From the IMG/VR virus record IMGVR_UViG_3300017684_000001, positions 1 through 64,000 of that record: DNA of 64,000 nt, one strand, 5' to 3'. This document shows positions 6,213 to 58,362 of the stretch, piece after piece. The first letter of the stretch is position 1. Each line of letters opens with the position of its first letter. The notes below the pieces were generated by a model. That model searched no databases, was not told the origin of the DNA, and worked only from the letters and a program-made list of their open reading frames with translations. A program made the position numbers and the translations under genes. The stretch is from a virus.

Positions 6213-6608
6213 CTACCGCCCGAATTCAACCTTCGTGTTCAGCCGCGCCGCCGACGGCGTCAATCCCGAACTCACGTCCGATGAATACGCGGTTTCGATC
6301 TCGACCGAAACTGTGTACTGGCGCGGCCCGGAATCATAGGCGCCGGAATAGGTTTTGATCTGTCGGACGCCGGGGGACGTCAGGATCCGAGTTTGAAGGA
6401 CGGCGTCGCGAACATTCGCTGTATAGCGGCCGAGGACGTTCTGCTCGTACGGCGTCCCGTCTGAGAGGTCCATGTACCACTGACCCTGCCAGAGGTTGAG
6501 CCGGCTCTCGACGATCTGCGCAACCGCATCCGGGGAATTGCGGAGAAACGCGACCTGATCGCCTCCGAAAACCATGTCCCCGTTCTCATCGACGCGACGA
6601 ACTCTCAT
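6213..6608 (-). CDS. small baseplate wedge protein (gpW/XkdS position)
   Basis: 131 aa ORF directly upstream of baseplate J. GAGGAGGAG RBS 4 nt before the ATG at 6608. Confidence 0.5.
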   Translation of the reverse strand: MRVRRVDENGDMVFGGDQVAFLRNSPDAVAQIVESRLNLWQGQWYMDLSDGTPYEQNVLGRYTANVRDAVLQTRILTSPGVRQIKTYSGAYDSGPRQYTVSVEIETAYSSDVSSGLTPSAARLNTKVEFGR

Positions 6609-6627
6609 TGGGTTCTCCTCCTCTGCC

Positions 6628-6781
6628 GAGGTACGGGTTCACTTTTTTGGGTCGAAAGTGGGTACGAGCCGGTTTTATATATATAATATTTCTTCTTCTT
6701 CTAAATTAGAAGTAGAATACAGGAGAGGATATAAAACGGACCCGTACCCACTTTTGACCCAAAAAAGTGAACCCGTACCTC
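6628..6781. repeat. long AT-rich hairpin element, copy A
   Basis: Two ~52 nt arms (GAGGTACGGGTTCACTTTTTTGGGTC...) are reverse complements flanking an AT-rich near-palindromic core. Differs at 2 of 152 positions from the reverse complement of copy C. Confidence 0.9.
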
Positions 6782-6792
6782 CTCCCCTCCTC

Positions 6793-7659
6793 CTACCCCT
6801 CTAGGCTTGTGTAGTCGTCTGGGTCGACTGGATCGTGTTTCGTGTGCGCCGTAAGCGCCGACAAGGCGTCCGAGAGTGGCGCGAGGGCGTCCGGCTGTAC
6901 CAGCGACTGCAAAACCCCCTGAAAGCCTGTGGCGACCCCTTCCTCGCGATTACCTTCGACATCGAAGACCGGCGGTACGGCGAGCGCACCGCCGATCGTG
7001 GCAACCGAGGCGACGAGGGTGTGATTCGCGGCCGACCAAGAGAGCGCAGCATTCGAAGCCGAGACGATCCCGTTGAGTTGCCCACCGACGCCGTCGACCC
7101 AGGCTTGCGCGATTGCCGGGGCGAGGCTCCCCGAGACGACCTGTCCGACGACTTGCGGGAGTACGGTCTGAATCGAGCCGAGAAGGCCGGACGCCGTGAG
7201 CGGTCCGGTCACGACCGACGTCGCTGCGAGATCGGGGAGCGCCGCCCCGGCCATCTGCGCAGTCGTATCGTGAGCGATCATCCCGAGGAACCCGGCGCCG
7301 CCGTTTGTCAAACCGGCAAGCGTGTCGCCGGCCGATTGAAACGCCAAGAGAGTCGCCCCTAGGCCGTTCGCGCCCGTCAACGAGGATATGAGCCCGGCCG
7401 CGCCCGAAACGCTTCCTAGGCCCGCCGCGAGGCCGGGAATCGCCGACGAGATCGCCGACGAGATCGCTGCTTGCGGATTCTGAAGAAGCGACGAGAGGTT
7501 TCCGTCCTGGAGAACCTTCTTCATCAGATCGCCGGCCGCGCCGCCGTCGAGCCGTTTCGTGATCGAGAGCTTCTCCGCGAAGACGCTACCGACCTTCAAG
7601 AGCGGAACGCCGCCGATCAGTTGGAGCGCTTGGGGGAGGGGAACGAAGCCGCCGGCCAT
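6793..7659 (-). CDS. Gly/Ala-rich baseplate-module protein, unknown function
   Basis: 288 aa ORF between the spike and wedge genes. Low-complexity G/A/S/L-rich sequence. Confidence 0.5.
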   Translation of the reverse strand: MAGGFVPLPQALQLIGGVPLLKVGSVFAEKLSITKRLDGGAAGDLMKKVLQDGNLSSLLQNPQAAISSAISSAIPGLAAGLGSVSGAAGLISSLTGANGLGATLLAFQSAGDTLAGLTNGGAGFLGMIAHDTTAQMAGAALPDLAATSVVTGPLTASGLLGSIQTVLPQVVGQVVSGSLAPAIAQAWVDGVGGQLNGIVSASNAALSWSAANHTLVASVATIGGALAVPPVFDVEGNREEGVATGFQGVLQSLVQPDALAPLSDALSALTAHTKHDPVDPDDYTSLEG

Positions 7660-21705: not shown

Positions 21706-21771
21706 GAAAAAGAAGCTTTTCTTTTCCGTCGGGATGTGGCTATATCTCTGGGCGGCCGGGAGACCGCACCC
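21706..21771 (+). promoter_or_regulatory. early-type promoter cassette 1
   Basis: GAAAAAGAA A-tract. GCTTTTCTTTT box at 21715-21725. CTATAT at 21740-21745. Hairpin GGGCGG-CCGGGAGA-CCGCaCCC at 21750-21771. Same architecture at four other plus-strand sites. Confidence 0.55.
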
Positions 21772-28555: not shown

Positions 28556-28714
28556 TCAGCCTCCGATGGCGACGAGCGTCCCCGCGAGGACCAGGAAGCC
28601 CGGGACCGCGAGAATGAGGACGAACGGCAGAAGCGCGAGCGCGAGCAGCGCGGCGAAGAACCCGTACCGGGCGATGAACGAAGCCGCGAACAGCGCGGCG
28701 ATGAGCCAGACCAT
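28556..28714 (-). CDS. small hydrophobic membrane protein
   Basis: ORF track 28556..28744. ATG 28714 (MVWLIAALFAAS...) preceded by AGGAGG. Almost entirely hydrophobic. Confidence 0.4.
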   Translation of the reverse strand: MVWLIAALFAASFIARYGFFAALLALALLPFVLILAVPGFLVLAGTLVAIGG

Positions 28715-29512: not shown

Positions 29513-29718
29513 AGCCCATTCGCCAACTTGCGGACGTCCTCGGGCCGGAAGTCCGGGGGAAGGCCGTTCACGAGATTGCACCGGACCTCGAACGATACCG
29601 TGACCCCATCTGTCGAGATCCGATTGACCTCGCACGAGACCGATTCGTAACCGAACGCCGCCCATCGGCGCTCGATCCGACGGGCGAGCTTCGTCGCCTC
29701 GCGCTCTTCGCCGATCAT
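29509..29718 (-). CDS. hypothetical protein
   Basis: 69 aa ORF. Confidence 0.45.
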   Translation of the reverse strand: MIGEEREATKLARRIERRWAAFGYESVSCEVNRISTDGVTVSFEVRCNLVNGLPPDFRPEDVRKLANGL

Positions 29719-30515
29719 CGCTGGCCTCCGCCCATCGGCAGGTTCGCGAGCTTCCGGAGATCCGGCGCCAGGCCCGGCATCGGGTCGATCCCGAACTTCG
29801 CCGTCAGCGCGTCGATCGAGATGATCTCGGGGGTCGCGTCCTCGGCGTTGTCGACGACATAGGCGCCCGCGAGGGTCGGCGCGTTCGTCGAGGGGTCGCC
29901 GGGGATGTAGACCGCCTTCCAGAGCCGGGCCGGGACCGCGACGCGCCCCTTGAGCTTCGTCGTCAGACCGGAATACGCCGGGCCGGTCACGATCCAGCCC
30001 TCGCCGCCGATCCGCAGGACGACCTCGCGCCGGACCCGCTCCTCGATCCGGGACCAGACGCCCCGGTTATTGTTCGGGATCTGCGGGACCATGTTCGAGA
30101 GCGCGAAACTCTCACGCTGCGCCGAGGCGGTCGGCATGTCGCCGGCCGGGGCCATGTGGCCGCGATCGTATGGGGCGCCCTTGTAATCGTTCATCTCGGC
30201 GCGGAATTCGATCGGCACCTTCGCATCGGCGTGGAAGGCATCGACGCGGTCGAGGTGATTGGCGGCGATCAGGCCGGCGACCGTGAGATGCTCGGCGGCG
30301 TAGGCCGGTCCGTACGACCACGGCGAGACCGCGTTCGCGAATGCCTGGTTGCAGATCTCCAACGAGCCGACGTCCGCGGGCGGGAGATCGGGGGCCTTCC
30401 CGGCGAGGTAGTGCGCGGGACAGGCGGTGTCCGCGGCGTATGCGGGGAGGCGATCGAGGCCGAATAGAGCCGAGGCCGCGAGAATCATGGCTAGGACGGG
30501 CGAGACGGGCTTCAC
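29715..30515 (-). CDS. secreted DNA/RNA non-specific endonuclease (NucA/EndoG beta-beta-alpha-Me family)
   Basis: 266 aa. Sec-type signal MKPVSPVLAMILAASALFGLDRLPAYA. Catalytic-type motif YDRGHMAP ... SNMVPQIPNNNRGVW. Confidence 0.8.
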   Translation of the reverse strand: MKPVSPVLAMILAASALFGLDRLPAYAADTACPAHYLAGKAPDLPPADVGSLEICNQAFANAVSPWSYGPAYAAEHLTVAGLIAANHLDRVDAFHADAKVPIEFRAEMNDYKGAPYDRGHMAPAGDMPTASAQRESFALSNMVPQIPNNNRGVWSRIEERVRREVVLRIGGEGWIVTGPAYSGLTTKLKGRVAVPARLWKAVYIPGDPSTNAPTLAGAYVVDNAEDATPEIISIDALTAKFGIDPMPGLAPDLRKLANLPMGGGQR

Positions 30516-30630: not shown

Positions 30631-30803
30631 GGGGAGGGGGAGGTACGGGTTCACTTTTTTAGGTCAATTCTGGGTACCGCCCCGTTTTAAGTATATATAT
30701 ATTCTTCTTCTTCTTAAATTAGAAGTAGAATACGTAGGAGAAGAAAAAACGGACCGGTACCCAGAATTGACCTAAAAAAGTGCACCCGTACCTCCCCCTC
30801 CCC
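30631..30803. repeat. long AT-rich hairpin element, copy B (divergent, G/C-extended stem)
   Basis: Same architecture and plus-strand orientation as copy A. The stem is extended by GGGGAGGGGGAGG / CCTCCCCCTCCCC. Four arm substitutions relative to A/C are each compensated in the other arm. Confidence 0.9.
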
Positions 30804-38413: not shown

Positions 38414-38863
38414 TCACCTAACCGGGAAATCATACGTCGGTTCACGCCGCGGCACGACCGGCTCGATCTCGACTTCCGGCTTCCAAGGCGGGGCCGTTTT
38501 GGGACTCTGAGCGAGCGGTCCGCCATCTTTGAAAGCCCAATCGATCGGATCTAACTTGTCGATTTTGTCTTGAGATTCCGCATCGAGTTCCCGCAGCATC
38601 GCCGCGTAGGTCGAAAGGTCGAGAAGCGAATCGTCGTGGCCGCCTGCCTCGAACTGGTTGGCGTACCGAACGATCTTCATGACGATCTGTGTGAGGACGC
38701 CGAGGCGGTTCGCGTCCTCGATGTTCCGGATCGCGAAGCCATTCGGCCGAAGCGCCATGAGCACATGGCCGAAGTTCTTATACGCGTCGCCGTAGACCTT
38801 TCCGCGCTCCTCGAAAACGTCGGCGCTCTCGCGTAGGGAATCTTGGGGTTTCATTTTCACCAT
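38414..38863 (-). CDS. all-alpha NTP pyrophosphohydrolase-like protein (uncertain)
   Basis: ORF track 38414..38908. Starts possible at 38863 or 38854. ERGKVYGDAYKNFG...KIVRYANQFEAGGHDDSLLDLSTYAAM recalls MazG-like phage proteins. Confidence 0.4.
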   Translation of the reverse strand: MVKMKPQDSLRESADVFEERGKVYGDAYKNFGHVLMALRPNGFAIRNIEDANRLGVLTQIVMKIVRYANQFEAGGHDDSLLDLSTYAAMLRELDAESQDKIDKLDPIDWAFKDGGPLAQSPKTAPPWKPEVEIEPVVPRREPTYDFPVR

Positions 38864-39333
38864 CCTGTCGCTTGAACCTGCCAACAGCAGTATCCGAGAT
38901 TGCGCCACGCCTCGACGACCTTGTCTCGGTCTTCGAGGATGAAGGCGACGTCTGGCCTTCCATCGTAAAAAAGTGATTTATCTTCTAGAAACTTATCCAG
39001 CATCGCCGGCTTAACCTCGACGTCCGGCCTCCAGTCGCCGTCCGACCGCATCAGGATCGTGTCGAAGACCGCTAGATCATGCTTGATCAGCCATTCAAGC
39101 GTCGTTTGGCGGTATCGCTCGTTCCGGCCGGTACAGGCGACGAGGAGGATCTTGTCGAGGACCGACCACCAGCAGAGGACGGAGAGAAAGAACGCCACAT
39201 CCGACCGAGGCCGATCGTCCTTGGCCGCTTGATGAAATTGATCCCATTCTTTAGCTTGTGCGAAATGATCTCTATGCGAAGAATCACAAAGAGTTCCGTC
39301 TAAATCGACCACTATGACTTTCACGAGGTACAT
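38857..39333 (-). CDS. HAD-superfamily phosphatase (nucleotidase/polynucleotide phosphatase-like)
   Basis: 158 aa. Motif I VVDLDGTLCD. Motif II-like LLVACTGR. C-terminal acidic motif ILEDRDKV. Confidence 0.6.
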   Translation of the reverse strand: MYLVKVIVVDLDGTLCDSSHRDHFAQAKEWDQFHQAAKDDRPRSDVAFFLSVLCWWSVLDKILLVACTGRNERYRQTTLEWLIKHDLAVFDTILMRSDGDWRPDVEVKPAMLDKFLEDKSLFYDGRPDVAFILEDRDKVVEAWRNLGYCCWQVQATGW

Positions 39334-39727
39334 CCTTCTGAGTTCTAGTTAAGCCTCTTAATTTATGATCTTTTTCTTCTTTTGTCATTTTATCCCAACT
39401 TAATTTTATTCCCTTAGATACGTTTAATCTCCAATTATGATTTCTTAAAACTCTTTCAATCGTATTTCTTTTCGAAGACCCAATGGAGAGATGATCTGGG
39501 TTTATGCACCATCCATTATCACAACTATGCAGGACCAATCCCTCTTTCAGATTAGGAGGACGACAAGGAATGTCTTCGCAATTAAGCCTATAGCTAAGAC
39601 GATGAGCAAACCAATTTTCTCCTCTCCACCTAAGTTTCTTTCGATTAGTAAGACGAGGAGCATCTACTTCGATGCAATCACCAACTTGTTTAAGAGGAAG
39701 AGGGAAAATAACGTTCTTAATATCCAT
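39284..39727 (-). CDS. HNH homing endonuclease
   Basis: 147 aa. AHRLSYRL...VLHSCDNGWCINPDHLSIGSSKRN is HNH_3-like. Strongly AT-rich island 39335-39760. The 3' end overlaps the HAD gene by 50 nt. Confidence 0.75.
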   Translation of the reverse strand: MDIKNVIFPLPLKQVGDCIEVDAPRLTNRKKLRWRGENWFAHRLSYRLNCEDIPCRPPNLKEGLVLHSCDNGWCINPDHLSIGSSKRNTIERVLRNHNWRLNVSKGIKLSWDKMTKEEKDHKLRGLTRTQKDVPRESHSGRFRRNSL

Positions 39728-41161: not shown

Positions 41162-41222
41162 GATGTCTATTCCCTTTCGGTTCGCCGAATTCTTGAGACC
41201 GACGGCGAGACGGTGGACCCCG

Positions 41223-41261
41223 ATCTAAGCCGATCCGGCCGCAAAAGGAAAGCGATTTTTT
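41223..41261 (-). promoter_or_regulatory. leftward early-type promoter (box variant)
   Basis: Minus strand reads AAAAAATC-GCTTTCCTTTT (10/11 match to the box), T at offset 10, TTAGAT at offset 15-20. About 60 nt upstream of ATG 41161. Confidence 0.4.
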
Positions 41262-41294
41262 GTGCGTTTCGGCAGAAAAAATGTACCTCGATTT

Positions 41295-41358
41295 GAAAAG
41301 GGCGCTTTTCTTTTAGGCCAGAATGCTATCTAAAGGTGTGGGGCCGGAGACGAGGCCC
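41295..41358 (+). promoter_or_regulatory. early-type promoter cassette 2 (rightward)
   Basis: GAAAAG. Box at 41304-41314. TATCTA/TCTAAA at 41327-41334. Hairpin GGGGCC-GGAGACGA-GGCCC at 41340-41357. ATG of the XRE gene at 41376. Confidence 0.55.
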
Positions 41359-41375
41359 GCCCGGAGACAATTTTA

Positions 41376-51754: not shown

Positions 51755-52276
51755 ATGAAGACGCATATCGAACTCGGAATCTCGAAAAGTGAATATGACG
51801 CCCTGATCGCGACGGCGGCGTATCTCCGCGCGGATGAGGATTTATGGATCGACGAAATGGAAGTCGACGATGGAATCGAAGAAGAACGAGAGAGACCGTT
51901 TTTTAATATGCTCCACACTTGCGAAGGCTATGCTTGTGGAACCGTAGCTTGCATCGGCGGACACGTTTCGATCTTCCAAGAACTAGGTCGAATTCCGGAA
52001 TACGTCGAAGCGGACGTCCGCGATCGCGCCGACAAATACGTCTCAAAGAAGAACTTCCAGGACTATATGGACTCGGGAGAGGTCGCGCGGGAGAGGTACG
52101 AAGCAGCCTCCGGTCTCGCTAAGCTCTTCTACCCAGCCCCAATCTCGAATTGGAATGGCTTAACCCCGGTCGTCGCGGCCGACGCGATCGACCGATTTCT
52201 CGCGACCGGCGATCCGGGTTGGGTCGAGATCGCGAAAGAAAAAGGGTTTGTCCTCGCACCAGGGTGGAATCGATGA
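51755..52276 (+). CDS. hypothetical protein, Cys-motif paralogue 2
   Basis: 173 aa. FFNMLHTCEGYACGTVACIGGH ... AIDRFLATGD. Confidence 0.5.
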   Translation: MKTHIELGISKSEYDALIATAAYLRADEDLWIDEMEVDDGIEEERERPFFNMLHTCEGYACGTVACIGGHVSIFQELGRIPEYVEADVRDRADKYVSKKNFQDYMDSGEVARERYEAASGLAKLFYPAPISNWNGLTPVVAADAIDRFLATGDPGWVEIAKEKGFVLAPGWNR

Positions 52277-52554
52277 GCGCCAACGACGGCGGCCCGACAA
52301 TCCGAGTCTCGCGCGCGCCGGTCGATCGGCCGCGGATCCCGCGCGGAATCGTATCGGTCCCGGTGTGCCCCTCGGAGTGCGAGAATAGCCCTGTAGCTGG
52401 CGAGCGCGCCGATTTCAGCCTCCGGGTCATCGACGACGCCGGACGGGTCTACGAGGCCCACTATCACGGCGCGCGGGCCGTATCCATCGAGGATGGGGAT
52501 CGCGCGCTCTTCGAAGTCGGCCCGGAGGTCGTCGTGACCTGGGATCCGGCATAG
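52273..52554 (+). CDS. hypothetical protein
   Basis: Part of ORF 52150..52554. ATG 52273 forms an ATGA overlap. Confidence 0.45.
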   Translation: MSANDGGPTIRVSRAPVDRPRIPRGIVSVPVCPSECENSPVAGERADFSLRVIDDAGRVYEAHYHGARAVSIEDGDRALFEVGPEVVVTWDPA

Positions 52555-52566
52555 GGGGGAGTGGAG

Positions 52567-52720
52567 GAGGTACGGGTTCACTTTTTTGGGTCAAAAGTGG
52601 GTACGGGTCCGTTTTATATCCTCTCCTGTATTCTACTTCTAATTTAGAAGAAGAAGAAATATTACATATATAAAACCGGCTCGTACCCACTTTTGACCCA
52701 AAAAAGTGAACCCGTACCTC
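52567..52720. repeat. long AT-rich hairpin element, copy C
   Basis: Reverse complement of copy A with 2 substitutions in 152 nt. About 53 bp outer stem (1 mismatch, 2 G-T pairs) plus an inner TTCTACTTCTAA/TTAGAAGAAGAA stem. Confidence 0.9.
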
Positions 52721-52741
52721 GCCAGAGAAGGAGAAGCAGTG

Positions 52742-53341
52742 ATGGAATGGGACGCATACCTCTACGGATTCGCGGAACACGCCGCTAAGAAATCGAAGGA
52801 CTCGACCCAGGTCGGCGCCGTCCTCGTCGCCCCGAACGGCCGCAGCGTCCTGCTGACGGCGTTCAATGGCCCGCCGCCCGGCGTCCTCGATCTCCCGGAA
52901 CGTCGGGAGCGGCCGGAGAAGTACCGCTACGTCTGCCACGCCGAGCGCAACTTGATCGCGACAGCGGCCCGCCACGGGATCCGCACGGATGGGACGACGG
53001 TCTACTGTACCCACCGATGTTGCTCGCCGTGTGCCGCGGAGATGATCGCCGCTGGCGTCCGGACCTTCGCCTACGGCCCCGGCCGATTCGTCGGCGACGG
53101 TGAGCAGTGGGAGGCTTCGGCGACGATGTTCGCAGAAGCTGGCGTCAAGACTAAAGAAATTATCGCGAGGGCGCCCGCGGATCCTGATCGCGATTGGTGC
53201 GAAAGAGCGTTCGCTCTTTTCCGGTCTCTGGCGCCTCACCGTCCTCTCACGCCGACCGACGATGCCGAGCTTCTCGTTGGGCTCGAACTGAAAGAAGAGC
53301 CATCAAAGACCGTTCTCCGCATTCTTAAGGTCCGTCCATGA
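52742..53341 (+). CDS. dCMP (deoxycytidylate) deaminase
   Basis: ORF track 52706..53341. ATG 52742 after AAGGAG. Zinc motifs CHAERNLI and CSPCAAEM. Confidence 0.8.
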   Translation: MEWDAYLYGFAEHAAKKSKDSTQVGAVLVAPNGRSVLLTAFNGPPPGVLDLPERRERPEKYRYVCHAERNLIATAARHGIRTDGTTVYCTHRCCSPCAAEMIAAGVRTFAYGPGRFVGDGEQWEASATMFAEAGVKTKEIIARAPADPDRDWCERAFALFRSLAPHRPLTPTDDAELLVGLELKEEPSKTVLRILKVRP

Positions 53342-57357: not shown

Positions 57358-58362
57358 CTAGTTGCACCACGCCTCGATGAAAACGGTCGGTGTCCCGGTC
57401 GTCGCGAGATTGAGCGACAGGACGCCGAGAAGCGAGACCGTCGCCGCCTGCGAGACGTTCCCCGATACCGTCGTCGTCGTCACAGTCGAGACGTTTCCCA
57501 TCCGGACGCCAGCCGCGGTCGCGTCGACGCCCTGGGCCTGAACCTGGACGTTGTACGGCGCGGCGGTACACCCTGCCGAGGCGATCGATACGGACCAGAG
57601 CCCGTTCGTCGCGACCGTTGATCCGACCCAGACCTTTGCCCCGGTGCGCGCGCCGGACGGCCCGTAGACCGGAATGGATCCTGCGGGTCCGATTGCGCCA
57701 GTTAGTCCCGTCGGCCCCGTTGGGCCGGCTGGCCCTGTCGCTCCAGTCGCACCTGCGGAGCCCGTGGCCCCCGCATCACCCTTCGTCCCGGTCGCGCCTT
57801 GCTGACCCGTCGCTCCAGCAGGACCAGTTGCTCCAGCAGATCCCGTGTCTCCCTTCGCGCCCTGAATACCCTGAGGCCCTTGGGCACCTGTTGAGCCCGC
57901 ATTTCCCGTCGCCCCCGTTAAGCCTTGAGGCCCGCTCGGACCCGTCGCTCCCACCGGACCAGGATTACCCTGCACCCCTTGAGCGCCAGCCGGTCCAGTA
58001 GGCCCGGCGACCCCTGTCGCTCCAGTCGGGCCAGGCTGGCCCTGTAATCCTCGATCGCCCTGAGCGCCCTGCGGCCCCGTAGCTCCCGTTGCTCCGGTGT
58101 CCCCCTTCGGCCCAGCATTGCCCGTCGCTCCCTGGATTCCCTGCGGGCCTGTGGCCCCGGCCGCGCCCGCATCCCCCTTCGGCCCCTGAACGCCCTGGCT
58201 TCCCGCCGGCCCCGGGGCTCCGTCTGCGCCGGGGTTGCCTGGCGGCCCAACACCATTCTGCCGGATGTAGGCGAGCGCCGGCCCCGTTCCGAAGTCGGGG
58301 ATCGCTTCGAGACTGAGAAGCCCGAGCGCGAGCGAGAATGCGATCCTACTGACCGAAGCCAT
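57358..58362 (-). CDS. collagen-like (G-X-Y repeat) protein with N-terminal hydrophobic leader and globular C-domain
   Basis: 334 aa. About 60 uninterrupted GXY triplets ([19 protein letters not shown]...). N-terminus [18 protein letters not shown]. Confidence 0.85.

Follow-up and report, generated by a model that had tools for sequence, protein, structure and literature searches.

What is the 154-nt palindrome that fills the gap between two genes of the tail module in this phage, and why does the same unit lie at two other gene junctions in the 64-kb window (the whole stretch of DNA analysed here)? The phage is a myovirus with Pam3-like and PB1/Carpasina-like genes, including proteins resembling Pam3 gp33 and gp34; its baseplate J protein is ~47% identical to those of Burkholderia phages and its Pol III alpha is 37% identical to that of Xanthomonas phage Carpasina. 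The window makes up nearly the whole of a 65.7-kb phage contig (ENA ERZ27250440 k141_369820), and its gp25 and deaminase have homologues in Methylobacterium-type prophages, which offer a hint as to the host. A sequence-only reading had singled out positions 6628–6781, and the sequence and coordinates it gave for this element (copy A, minus strand) are accurate. The two reverse-complementary arms, described there as ~52 nt long, are 53 nt each (6628–6680 and 6729–6781) and 92% complementary; they surround an AT-rich core (6681–6728), and the whole is a near-perfect 154-nt palindrome. The gene-sense (minus-strand) RNA of 6613–6793 is predicted to form one hairpin of −95.1 kcal/mol, compared to −47.4±4.0 kcal/mol for 200 dinucleotide shuffles (z = −11.9), and the plus-strand RNA of copy A folds at −92.4 kcal/mol (z = −12.6 against dinucleotide shuffles), so that on both strands the fold is far more stable than its controls. 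The single long hairpin that had been proposed is thus recovered, with ~61 pairs rather than ~65–70. Some of these belong to a short apical hairpin that the core forms imperfectly, so the description of the core as a near-palindrome in its own right is true only in part. There is no further hairpin of comparable size anywhere in the 64-kb window.

The base composition is as had been described. The 50-mer of lowest GC content in the window, which is 62% GC overall, is at position 6672, and the cores of the three copies (GC 0.18–0.20) are three of its four most AT-rich 50-mers. Each arm was also thought to carry two GTAC-centred boxes (GGTACGGGT) about 31 nt apart; this is the case for the right arm of copy A, where the spacing is 31 nt, but the left arm has an imperfect inner box (GGTACGAGC). 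We considered solitary GGTACGGGT boxes elsewhere as operator sites and rejected them: there is a single exact match outside of the three elements, at 28660–28668 (minus strand; context CCGGTACGGGTTC), which is in a coding region (a small ORF) and is probably there by chance.

Both of the further copies that had been claimed, at 30631–30803 and 52567–52720, are present, although the first is better delimited as 30640–30794. This copy B (minus strand) is the most diverged of the three, with ~80–84% identity to copy A; its inverted repeat runs to 30631–30803 with 58-nt arms that are 95% complementary, and its substitutions relative to copies A and C are identical in both arms (AAAGTG to ATTCTG). 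Copy C (plus strand) has arms at 52567–52619 and 52668–52720 that are 94% complementary, and a core at 52620–52667. The elements are 154–155 nt long with no ATG and no ORF, and a 24-nt arm motif occurs six times in the window, twice per copy, where none are expected. A 181-nt segment at 6613–6793, made up of copy A with 12–15 nt of flank at either side, is 97% reverse-complementary to 52555–52735, and we read it as a homogenisation tract between copies A and C. We note that these two segments are also inverted repeats, 97% identical and 45.7 kb apart, and recombination between them could therefore invert most of the genome; genome isomers generated in this way could be present in the phage population.

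All three copies are between co-directional genes, and all point the same way with respect to the genes around them. Copy A was said to fill almost all of a 184-nt gap between two baseplate genes. The gap is indeed 184 nt, between ORFs at 6213–6608 and 6793–7659 (both minus strand), and the downstream gene is a gp25-like sheath initiator or baseplate wedge gene (phrog_120 / PF10934); the upstream gene encodes a 288-aa tail-module protein with no family match, and only the downstream gene can be shown to belong to the baseplate. The stop codon of the upstream gene is 11 nt before the element, and directly after the foot of the hairpin there is a spacer (6609–6627, minus strand) with the Shine-Dalgarno sequence (GAGGAGGAG) of the gp25-like gene, which is unpaired in the predicted fold. 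Copy B is between small ORFs downstream of the primase-helicase gene and an NS-type endonuclease gene (DNA/RNA non-specific endonuclease, 29715–30515, minus strand), which starts 124 nt past the element. Copy C is between a small gene (52273–52554, plus strand; the start is inferred from a 93-aa homologue in the related contig L035) and a dCMP deaminase/SNF2 helicase pair, with the Shine-Dalgarno sequence (AAGGAGAAG) of the deaminase gene (52742–53341, plus strand) just past the element. At both copies A and C the ribosome site of the next gene thus begins a few bases from the foot of the hairpin and is unpaired in the predicted folds.

We have not been able to match the element to a known signal. 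Rfam gives no matches at the gathering threshold, and in E-value mode only plant and animal miRNA-precursor hairpin models are returned, on both strands and at no more than about half of their thresholds. A search for tRNA and tmRNA genes gave nothing. The earlier statement that it matches no named repeat family stands, there being no fit to Rfam, Correia or ERIC. An intrinsic terminator can be discounted since there is no U-run past the hairpin (the next bases are GGCAGAGG, GCCAGAG and CCCCTCC) and there is no terminator-like site at any of the copies. A decoy for restriction enzymes can also be dismissed, as neither GTAC nor GGATCC, both of them recurrent in the arms, departs from its expected frequency genome-wide. 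Inspection of the core by eye reveals no IHF consensus (WATCAANNNNTTR).

Two other repeats in the window are of note. One is the motif GAAAARNNCGCTTTTCTTTT, a small GAAAAG/CTTTTC hairpin followed by a T-run, which is present seven times (at 21706, 28728 on the minus strand, 41243 on the minus strand, 41295, 43850, 50012, and 55227) compared to 0.09 expected; two copies are back to back in a divergent control region (41162–41375), and it may represent the phage's own promoter/operator or terminator motif. The other, at 57716–58248 inside an ORF at 57358–58362 (minus strand), is collagen-like, with a period of 9 nt and 14 copies that are shifted in register, and is presumably a Gly-X-Y tail-fibre segment.

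Related phages were found using the flanking proteins as anchors together with patterns of the element termini, and their junctions between the 288-aa protein gene and the gp25-like gene are informative. In L001 (gp25 92% identical to that of the window) the junction contains a window-type element. At 82% identity L017 has an element of another arm type, with the contig beginning inside of it, and in L002 (identical to L013; 80%) there is a 168-nt element whose arm sequence is unrelated to that of the window and which is 98% self-complementary. An L002-type element is present in L023 (76%), where the contig begins in the core, and elements of other types are found in L025 (76%; right end only), L022 (75%), and L018 (71%). 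In L024 (76%) the junction is empty and the upstream stop codon is 2 nt before the next ATG; it is also empty in the more distant L021 (58%), L008 (50%), and L010 (39%). In the two relatives L009 and L019 (69%) a 67-aa ORF takes the place of the element; this Cys-rich ORF is at L009:1206–1409, L019:9798–10001 and, in a third contig at the same level of gp25 identity, L020:720–923. The site of copy A therefore accepts different insertions. The deaminase junction, corresponding to copy C, is filled in contig 634 (L012), L035/L036, L037, and L038. Seven of the contigs, assembled from short reads by Logan, begin inside of the element or exactly at it (L016:1, L017:1, L018:1, L023:1, L025:1, L037:1, and L038:1), and the repeat systematically breaks short-read assemblies of the related phages right at its ends.

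Comparison of the different types defines the unit. The termini are related across all types, with the form (G)AGGT(A/T)C..GT(A/T)C, i.e. GAGGTWC...GWACCTC, and there is a common AT-rich centre of the form GTTTATAT-(TTC)n-centre-(GAA)n-ATATAAAC. A member of the family thus has conserved 13–14-bp termini (GAGGTWC..GTWC and its complement), long GC-rich arms, an AT-rich quasi-palindromic centre and no coding capacity, and it is positioned at the junction between the stop codon of one gene and the ribosome site of the next in co-directional genes. The arm sequence changes freely between types yet stays largely self-complementary. All eight members that were folded form hairpins with z-scores of −11 to −17 relative to shuffles, and in a plain MAFFT alignment 15 of the 27 consensus pairs have changes on both sides with the pairing kept. 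In six of the eight members the hairpin is more stable on the sense strand than on the antisense strand; counted by hand on the alignments, G.U and A.C mismatches number ~7 and 5, with no strand bias. The polarity of the core is a weak signal, with alignment scores slightly favouring the same orientation in all members, whereas by eye the L002 element looked flipped.

The identity of the elements is out of step with that of their flanks. Copy A and its L001 counterpart are identical at 152 of 154 positions, whereas the adjoining gp25 genes have an identity of only 0.77 at third codon positions and 0.80 at four-fold sites. Likewise, the L002 and L023 elements are identical at 102 of 104 positions, compared to 74% nucleotide identity of the adjoining gp25 genes and 58% at four-fold sites. 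In this second pair the identity ends at the end of the element, and the spacer with the Shine-Dalgarno sequence, directly past GTACCTC, is unrelated; between the window and L001 it is ~74% identical. Elements also resemble others in the same genome more than those at the same junction in different genomes, the within-genome identities being 0.99 for A and C, 0.84 for A and B, and 0.80 for L002 and L012, compared to 0.63 for A and L002 and 0.65 for C and L012. L017 and L038, which are contigs from one sequencing run and are assumed to be from one genome, also have a common arm type. Taken together, the filled and empty junctions, the sharp boundary in L002/L023, the near-identity of elements in diverged phages and the related termini in unrelated modules indicate a self-contained unit subject to gain, loss and exchange, as opposed to a site maintained by purifying selection.

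That genome-specific types are present at the same two junctions points to long residence together with homogenisation, and the filling of these two junctions in three genomes fits long residence and conversion better than repeated transposition. We infer that element-to-element gene conversion occurs both within a genome and between co-infecting genomes; conversion of this kind would also end where the element does, since copies at non-orthologous sites share no homology in their flanks. Not all members are equally well kept. The arms of the L035 element are only 75% complementary, the pairing across L035, L022, and L012 is ~75–85%, and the L012 and L022 elements contain mismatch blocks. When copy C is compared with L035, 44 of 48 core positions are identical, compared to 45 of 53 in the left arm and 39 of 53 in the right arm, and the neighbouring genes are 61–72% identical at four-fold sites. 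That the core is better conserved than silent sites, even in members with decayed arms, is a hint that its particular sequence has a function. This is the observation that least fits a selfish element, and it keeps a protein-binding, origin-like or promoter-like role alive.

The family extends beyond the close relatives. When the surroundings of primase homologues were searched for long inverted repeats, a degenerate 109-nt element came to light in a phage contig of 52% GC, with termini (AGGTTCCAAGTTCC) near to those of the L017 type and a centre of TTCTTCTTCT...GAAGAAGAAGA; the genes beside it are not homologous to those of the window. Scanning with terminus patterns identified a second copy in the same contig, a copy in another 52% GC contig that is beside a DUF932 gene, as is the second copy of the first contig, and a copy in the HK97-type head module of a 66% GC phage, between Bbp16-like and gp6-like connector genes. 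Every one of these is at a junction of co-directional genes. The type-2 terminus pattern AGGTTCCAGT..ACTGGAACCT has no match in the viral contigs. The element in the HK97-type head module, found in two different metagenomes (L039:3946–4055 and L041:2884–2993), is a 110-nt palindrome with tandemly doubled termini (AGGTTCCAAGTTCC AGGTTCCAAGTT) and a centre that is GC-rich rather than AT-rich.

A MITE-like mobile repeat was among the options raised by the sequence-only reading, and it is the one that we favour, in a restricted form. The inverted repeats are well beyond the 10–15 bp usual as a minimum for MITEs, with arms of 53–58 nt that are 92–95% complementary and termini that are conserved across types. 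The unit is non-coding, of suitable size (154–155 nt, in a range of 50–800 bp) and multi-copy: the window has three, and two further contigs have two apiece. Its insertion is polymorphic, with the junction filled in L001, L002, L018, L022, L023, L025, and L017 and empty in L024, L021, L008, and L010. Two other properties of MITEs are not seen. There is no consistent direct repeat of 2–10 bp at the copies that would represent a target-site duplication, the best being an imperfect 10/13 match in L012; around copy B and the L039 element the flanking bases prolong the inverted repeat rather than duplicating a target, and the requirement for a Shine-Dalgarno sequence could by itself account for the purine-rich direct repeats seen at the baseplate junction. 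Nor was a cognate transposase or a host copy found. Among ~50 window proteins scanned against Pfam or PHROGs there is no transposase, integrase or recombinase, and the two exact window-type terminus patterns have no matches in 185,579 reference genomes (one per species) or in JGI metagenome contigs. The element thus has no source population in cellular genomes as ordinary MITEs have, and a host-derived MITE was rejected on these grounds. Queries with three element types found no similarity in 50,697 GenBank phage records, nor did the window type in 72,556 PLSDB plasmids. We therefore call the element MITE-like and do not file it as a MITE: the filled and empty junctions, the near-identity despite diverged flanks and the occurrence of the termini in unrelated modules bear the suggestion out, whereas membership of the Correia or ERIC families, a target-site duplication and a cognate transposase or host copies do not. 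The gene-relative orientation common to the three window copies, and probably to those of the relatives, also counts against it.

We also sought a partner enzyme in the window and found none, the sole nuclease-type mobile gene being an AT-rich HNH ORF that is distant from the copies. This HNH endonuclease ORF (39284–39727, minus strand) has 50-mers with GC content down to 0.20 in a 62% GC genome and adjoins a polynucleotide kinase/phosphatase pair (38414–39333); it looks like a recently acquired homing-type gene.

We therefore propose, with a probability of about one half, that the element belongs to a family of non-coding foldback (MITE-like) repeats restricted to phages, whose members are passed on horizontally and become homogenised inside each genome. 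The family is previously undescribed: it is real and unusual, and it matched nothing in the libraries searched. Horizontal spread or replacement would occur either by transposition, with a putative trans-acting enzyme reading the termini, or by element-to-element conversion during co-infection; copies within a genome would then be homogenised, and an element would persist only where the upstream stop codon and the downstream Shine-Dalgarno sequence are left intact. Transcribed with its operon, it would form a ~60-bp hairpin that leaves the ribosome site of the next gene free, and in a proteobacterial host such a hairpin would be an expected substrate for RNase III, uncoupling the two cistrons. 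This consequence at the RNA level is drawn from the gene arrangement, the predicted folds (stem z = −12) and general knowledge of RNase III, and transcription across the element only from the co-directional flanks and the lack of terminator-like sites. We regard the RNA effect as something that the phage tolerates or gains slightly from, and not as the element's reason to exist. A bolder version, which we put forward only tentatively, is that the element is mobile solely among phages with no host reservoir, moving, or overwriting its own kind, between co-infecting phages without a transposase of the kind that forms target-site duplications, and that it has been adopted as a standard intercistronic module. 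Candidate routes would be conversion through the hairpin or by recombination, anchored on the GAGGTWC termini and the TTC/GAA centre, or the action of an unrecognised phage enzyme.

Two kinds of small repeats come closest to the element. Correia elements (CREE; ~104–157 bp) and ERIC elements (127 bp) are non-coding intergenic MITEs with terminal inverted repeats that form long hairpins, and they are co-transcribed with their neighbours and can alter mRNA processing or stability (PMC3184786). The phage family is similar in size and in being non-coding and intergenic, with inverted ends and a long hairpin. However, it is unrelated to them in sequence, has no clean target-site duplication (TA or otherwise), has arms of 45–58 bp rather than ~26 bp, and is present two to three times in a genome, where they number tens to hundreds; it is also seen only in phage contigs and not in cellular genomes, and it evolves in concert at conserved junctions. 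MITEs have also been reported in viral genomes, and these vMITEs are described as rare (0.2% of viruses), sometimes multi-copy in one phage, and mostly tied to MITEs of host genomes, and they were used to pair viruses with hosts (PMC11602168). The resemblance lies in MITE-shaped elements within phage genomes; going by that description, our family is set apart, as no cellular counterpart of it was found. The very long arms, low copy number, fixed junctions, concerted evolution and lack of a clean target-site duplication likewise distinguish it from the vMITEs.

Much of the same evidence could be read as a selected intercistronic RNA module, in which the transcribed hairpin is itself the function: an RNase III site, a stability barrier, or an insulator by which the two cistrons are uncoupled and the ribosome site of the second stays accessible. 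On this reading, recombination of a useful cassette would account for the horizontal pattern. The T7 RNase III sites are short irregular hairpins of ~50–60 nt with internal loops, and are conserved in place. Like these, the element forms an intercistronic hairpin within a phage operon, a short way before the next ribosome site, and the very stable hairpin in all members folded, the arms that change sequence with pairing retained, the constant position between co-directional genes directly upstream of an unpaired Shine-Dalgarno sequence, the advantage of the sense fold in six of eight members and the shared gene-relative orientation of all window copies all suit such a role. However, it differs from the T7 sites in having a near-perfect ~60-bp stem with a conserved AT-rich apex, in being gained and lost among close relatives, and in that cleavage here is only expected. 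Conservation is highest in the apical core, on which such a role would place no constraint, and the pairing is down to ~75–85% in L035, L022, and L012, which together make RNase III processing an unlikely reason for the conservation. In addition, the hand count of mismatches (~7 G.U, 5 A.C) has no strand bias, some relatives have empty junctions with genes that overlap or are adjacent, and the only likeness in Rfam is to generic miRNA-precursor models far below threshold on both strands. We consider it unlikely that selection as an RNA module is the explanation.

Sequence conservation well above that of silent sites would also fit a site acting in the DNA, with symmetric protein-binding arms around an easily melted AT-rich centre, for example as one of several redundant replication origins or priming sites or as a protein-bound cruciform. 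The candidate user is the phage primase-helicase (31489–33741), and if the arms co-evolve with a binding protein this would explain why arm types are genome-specific. The two GGTACGGGT boxes per arm, 31 nt apart and mirrored around a centre with a GC content of 0.18–0.20, the single arm type common to all copies in a genome, the phage's own primase-helicase-like protein, Pol III alpha and helicases, and the restriction of the family to phages are all compatible with this. Herpes simplex oriL, a 144-bp palindrome with an AT-rich centre in a genome with several origin copies, is built along similar lines, the element likewise being a long palindrome that is AT-rich in the middle, has mirrored boxes in its arms and is present several times in a genome. 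It differs from oriL in having boxes that are not common to other types at the same junction and in being dispensable in relatives, and skew offers no evidence of initiation here. The boxes are limited to the window type and missing from other types at the same junction, just one solitary box is found elsewhere in the window, close relatives have no element at the copy A junction, and related termini are present in phages of different module content; a DNA site as the primary explanation is thus rather improbable. Still more doubtful, and in our judgement very improbable, is a promoter cassette in which the AT-rich right half of the core (TTTAGA..N16-18..TATATA / TATAAAAC) drives the downstream gene with the arms as operators. 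A scan for sigma-70 promoters with 16–18 nt spacing finds one 9/12 match in copy B, on the gene strand and inside the core, and most members retain a TATA(T)AAAC box where the core ends on its downstream side. However, the same scan gives nothing at copies A and C, the −10-like hexamers have no conserved final T, the symmetric centre would give rise to an equal antisense promoter, and the divergent control region of the phage is marked by a different repeated motif.

Transposable elements are notably rare in the genomes of virulent phages, and the few MITEs there are usually traced to the host. The phage-restricted MITE-like family stands out in being seemingly confined to phages, in keeping its palindrome during turnover of the arms, and in that no transposase or target-site duplication was found. 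Near-identity of the elements in phages whose flanking genes have diverged by 20–40% at silent sites is a further unusual feature. These properties together make it a tractable case for studying how short selfish or semi-domesticated DNA may spread among co-infecting phages, and the element also lets one ask what role a 60-bp hairpin plays inside a structural operon.
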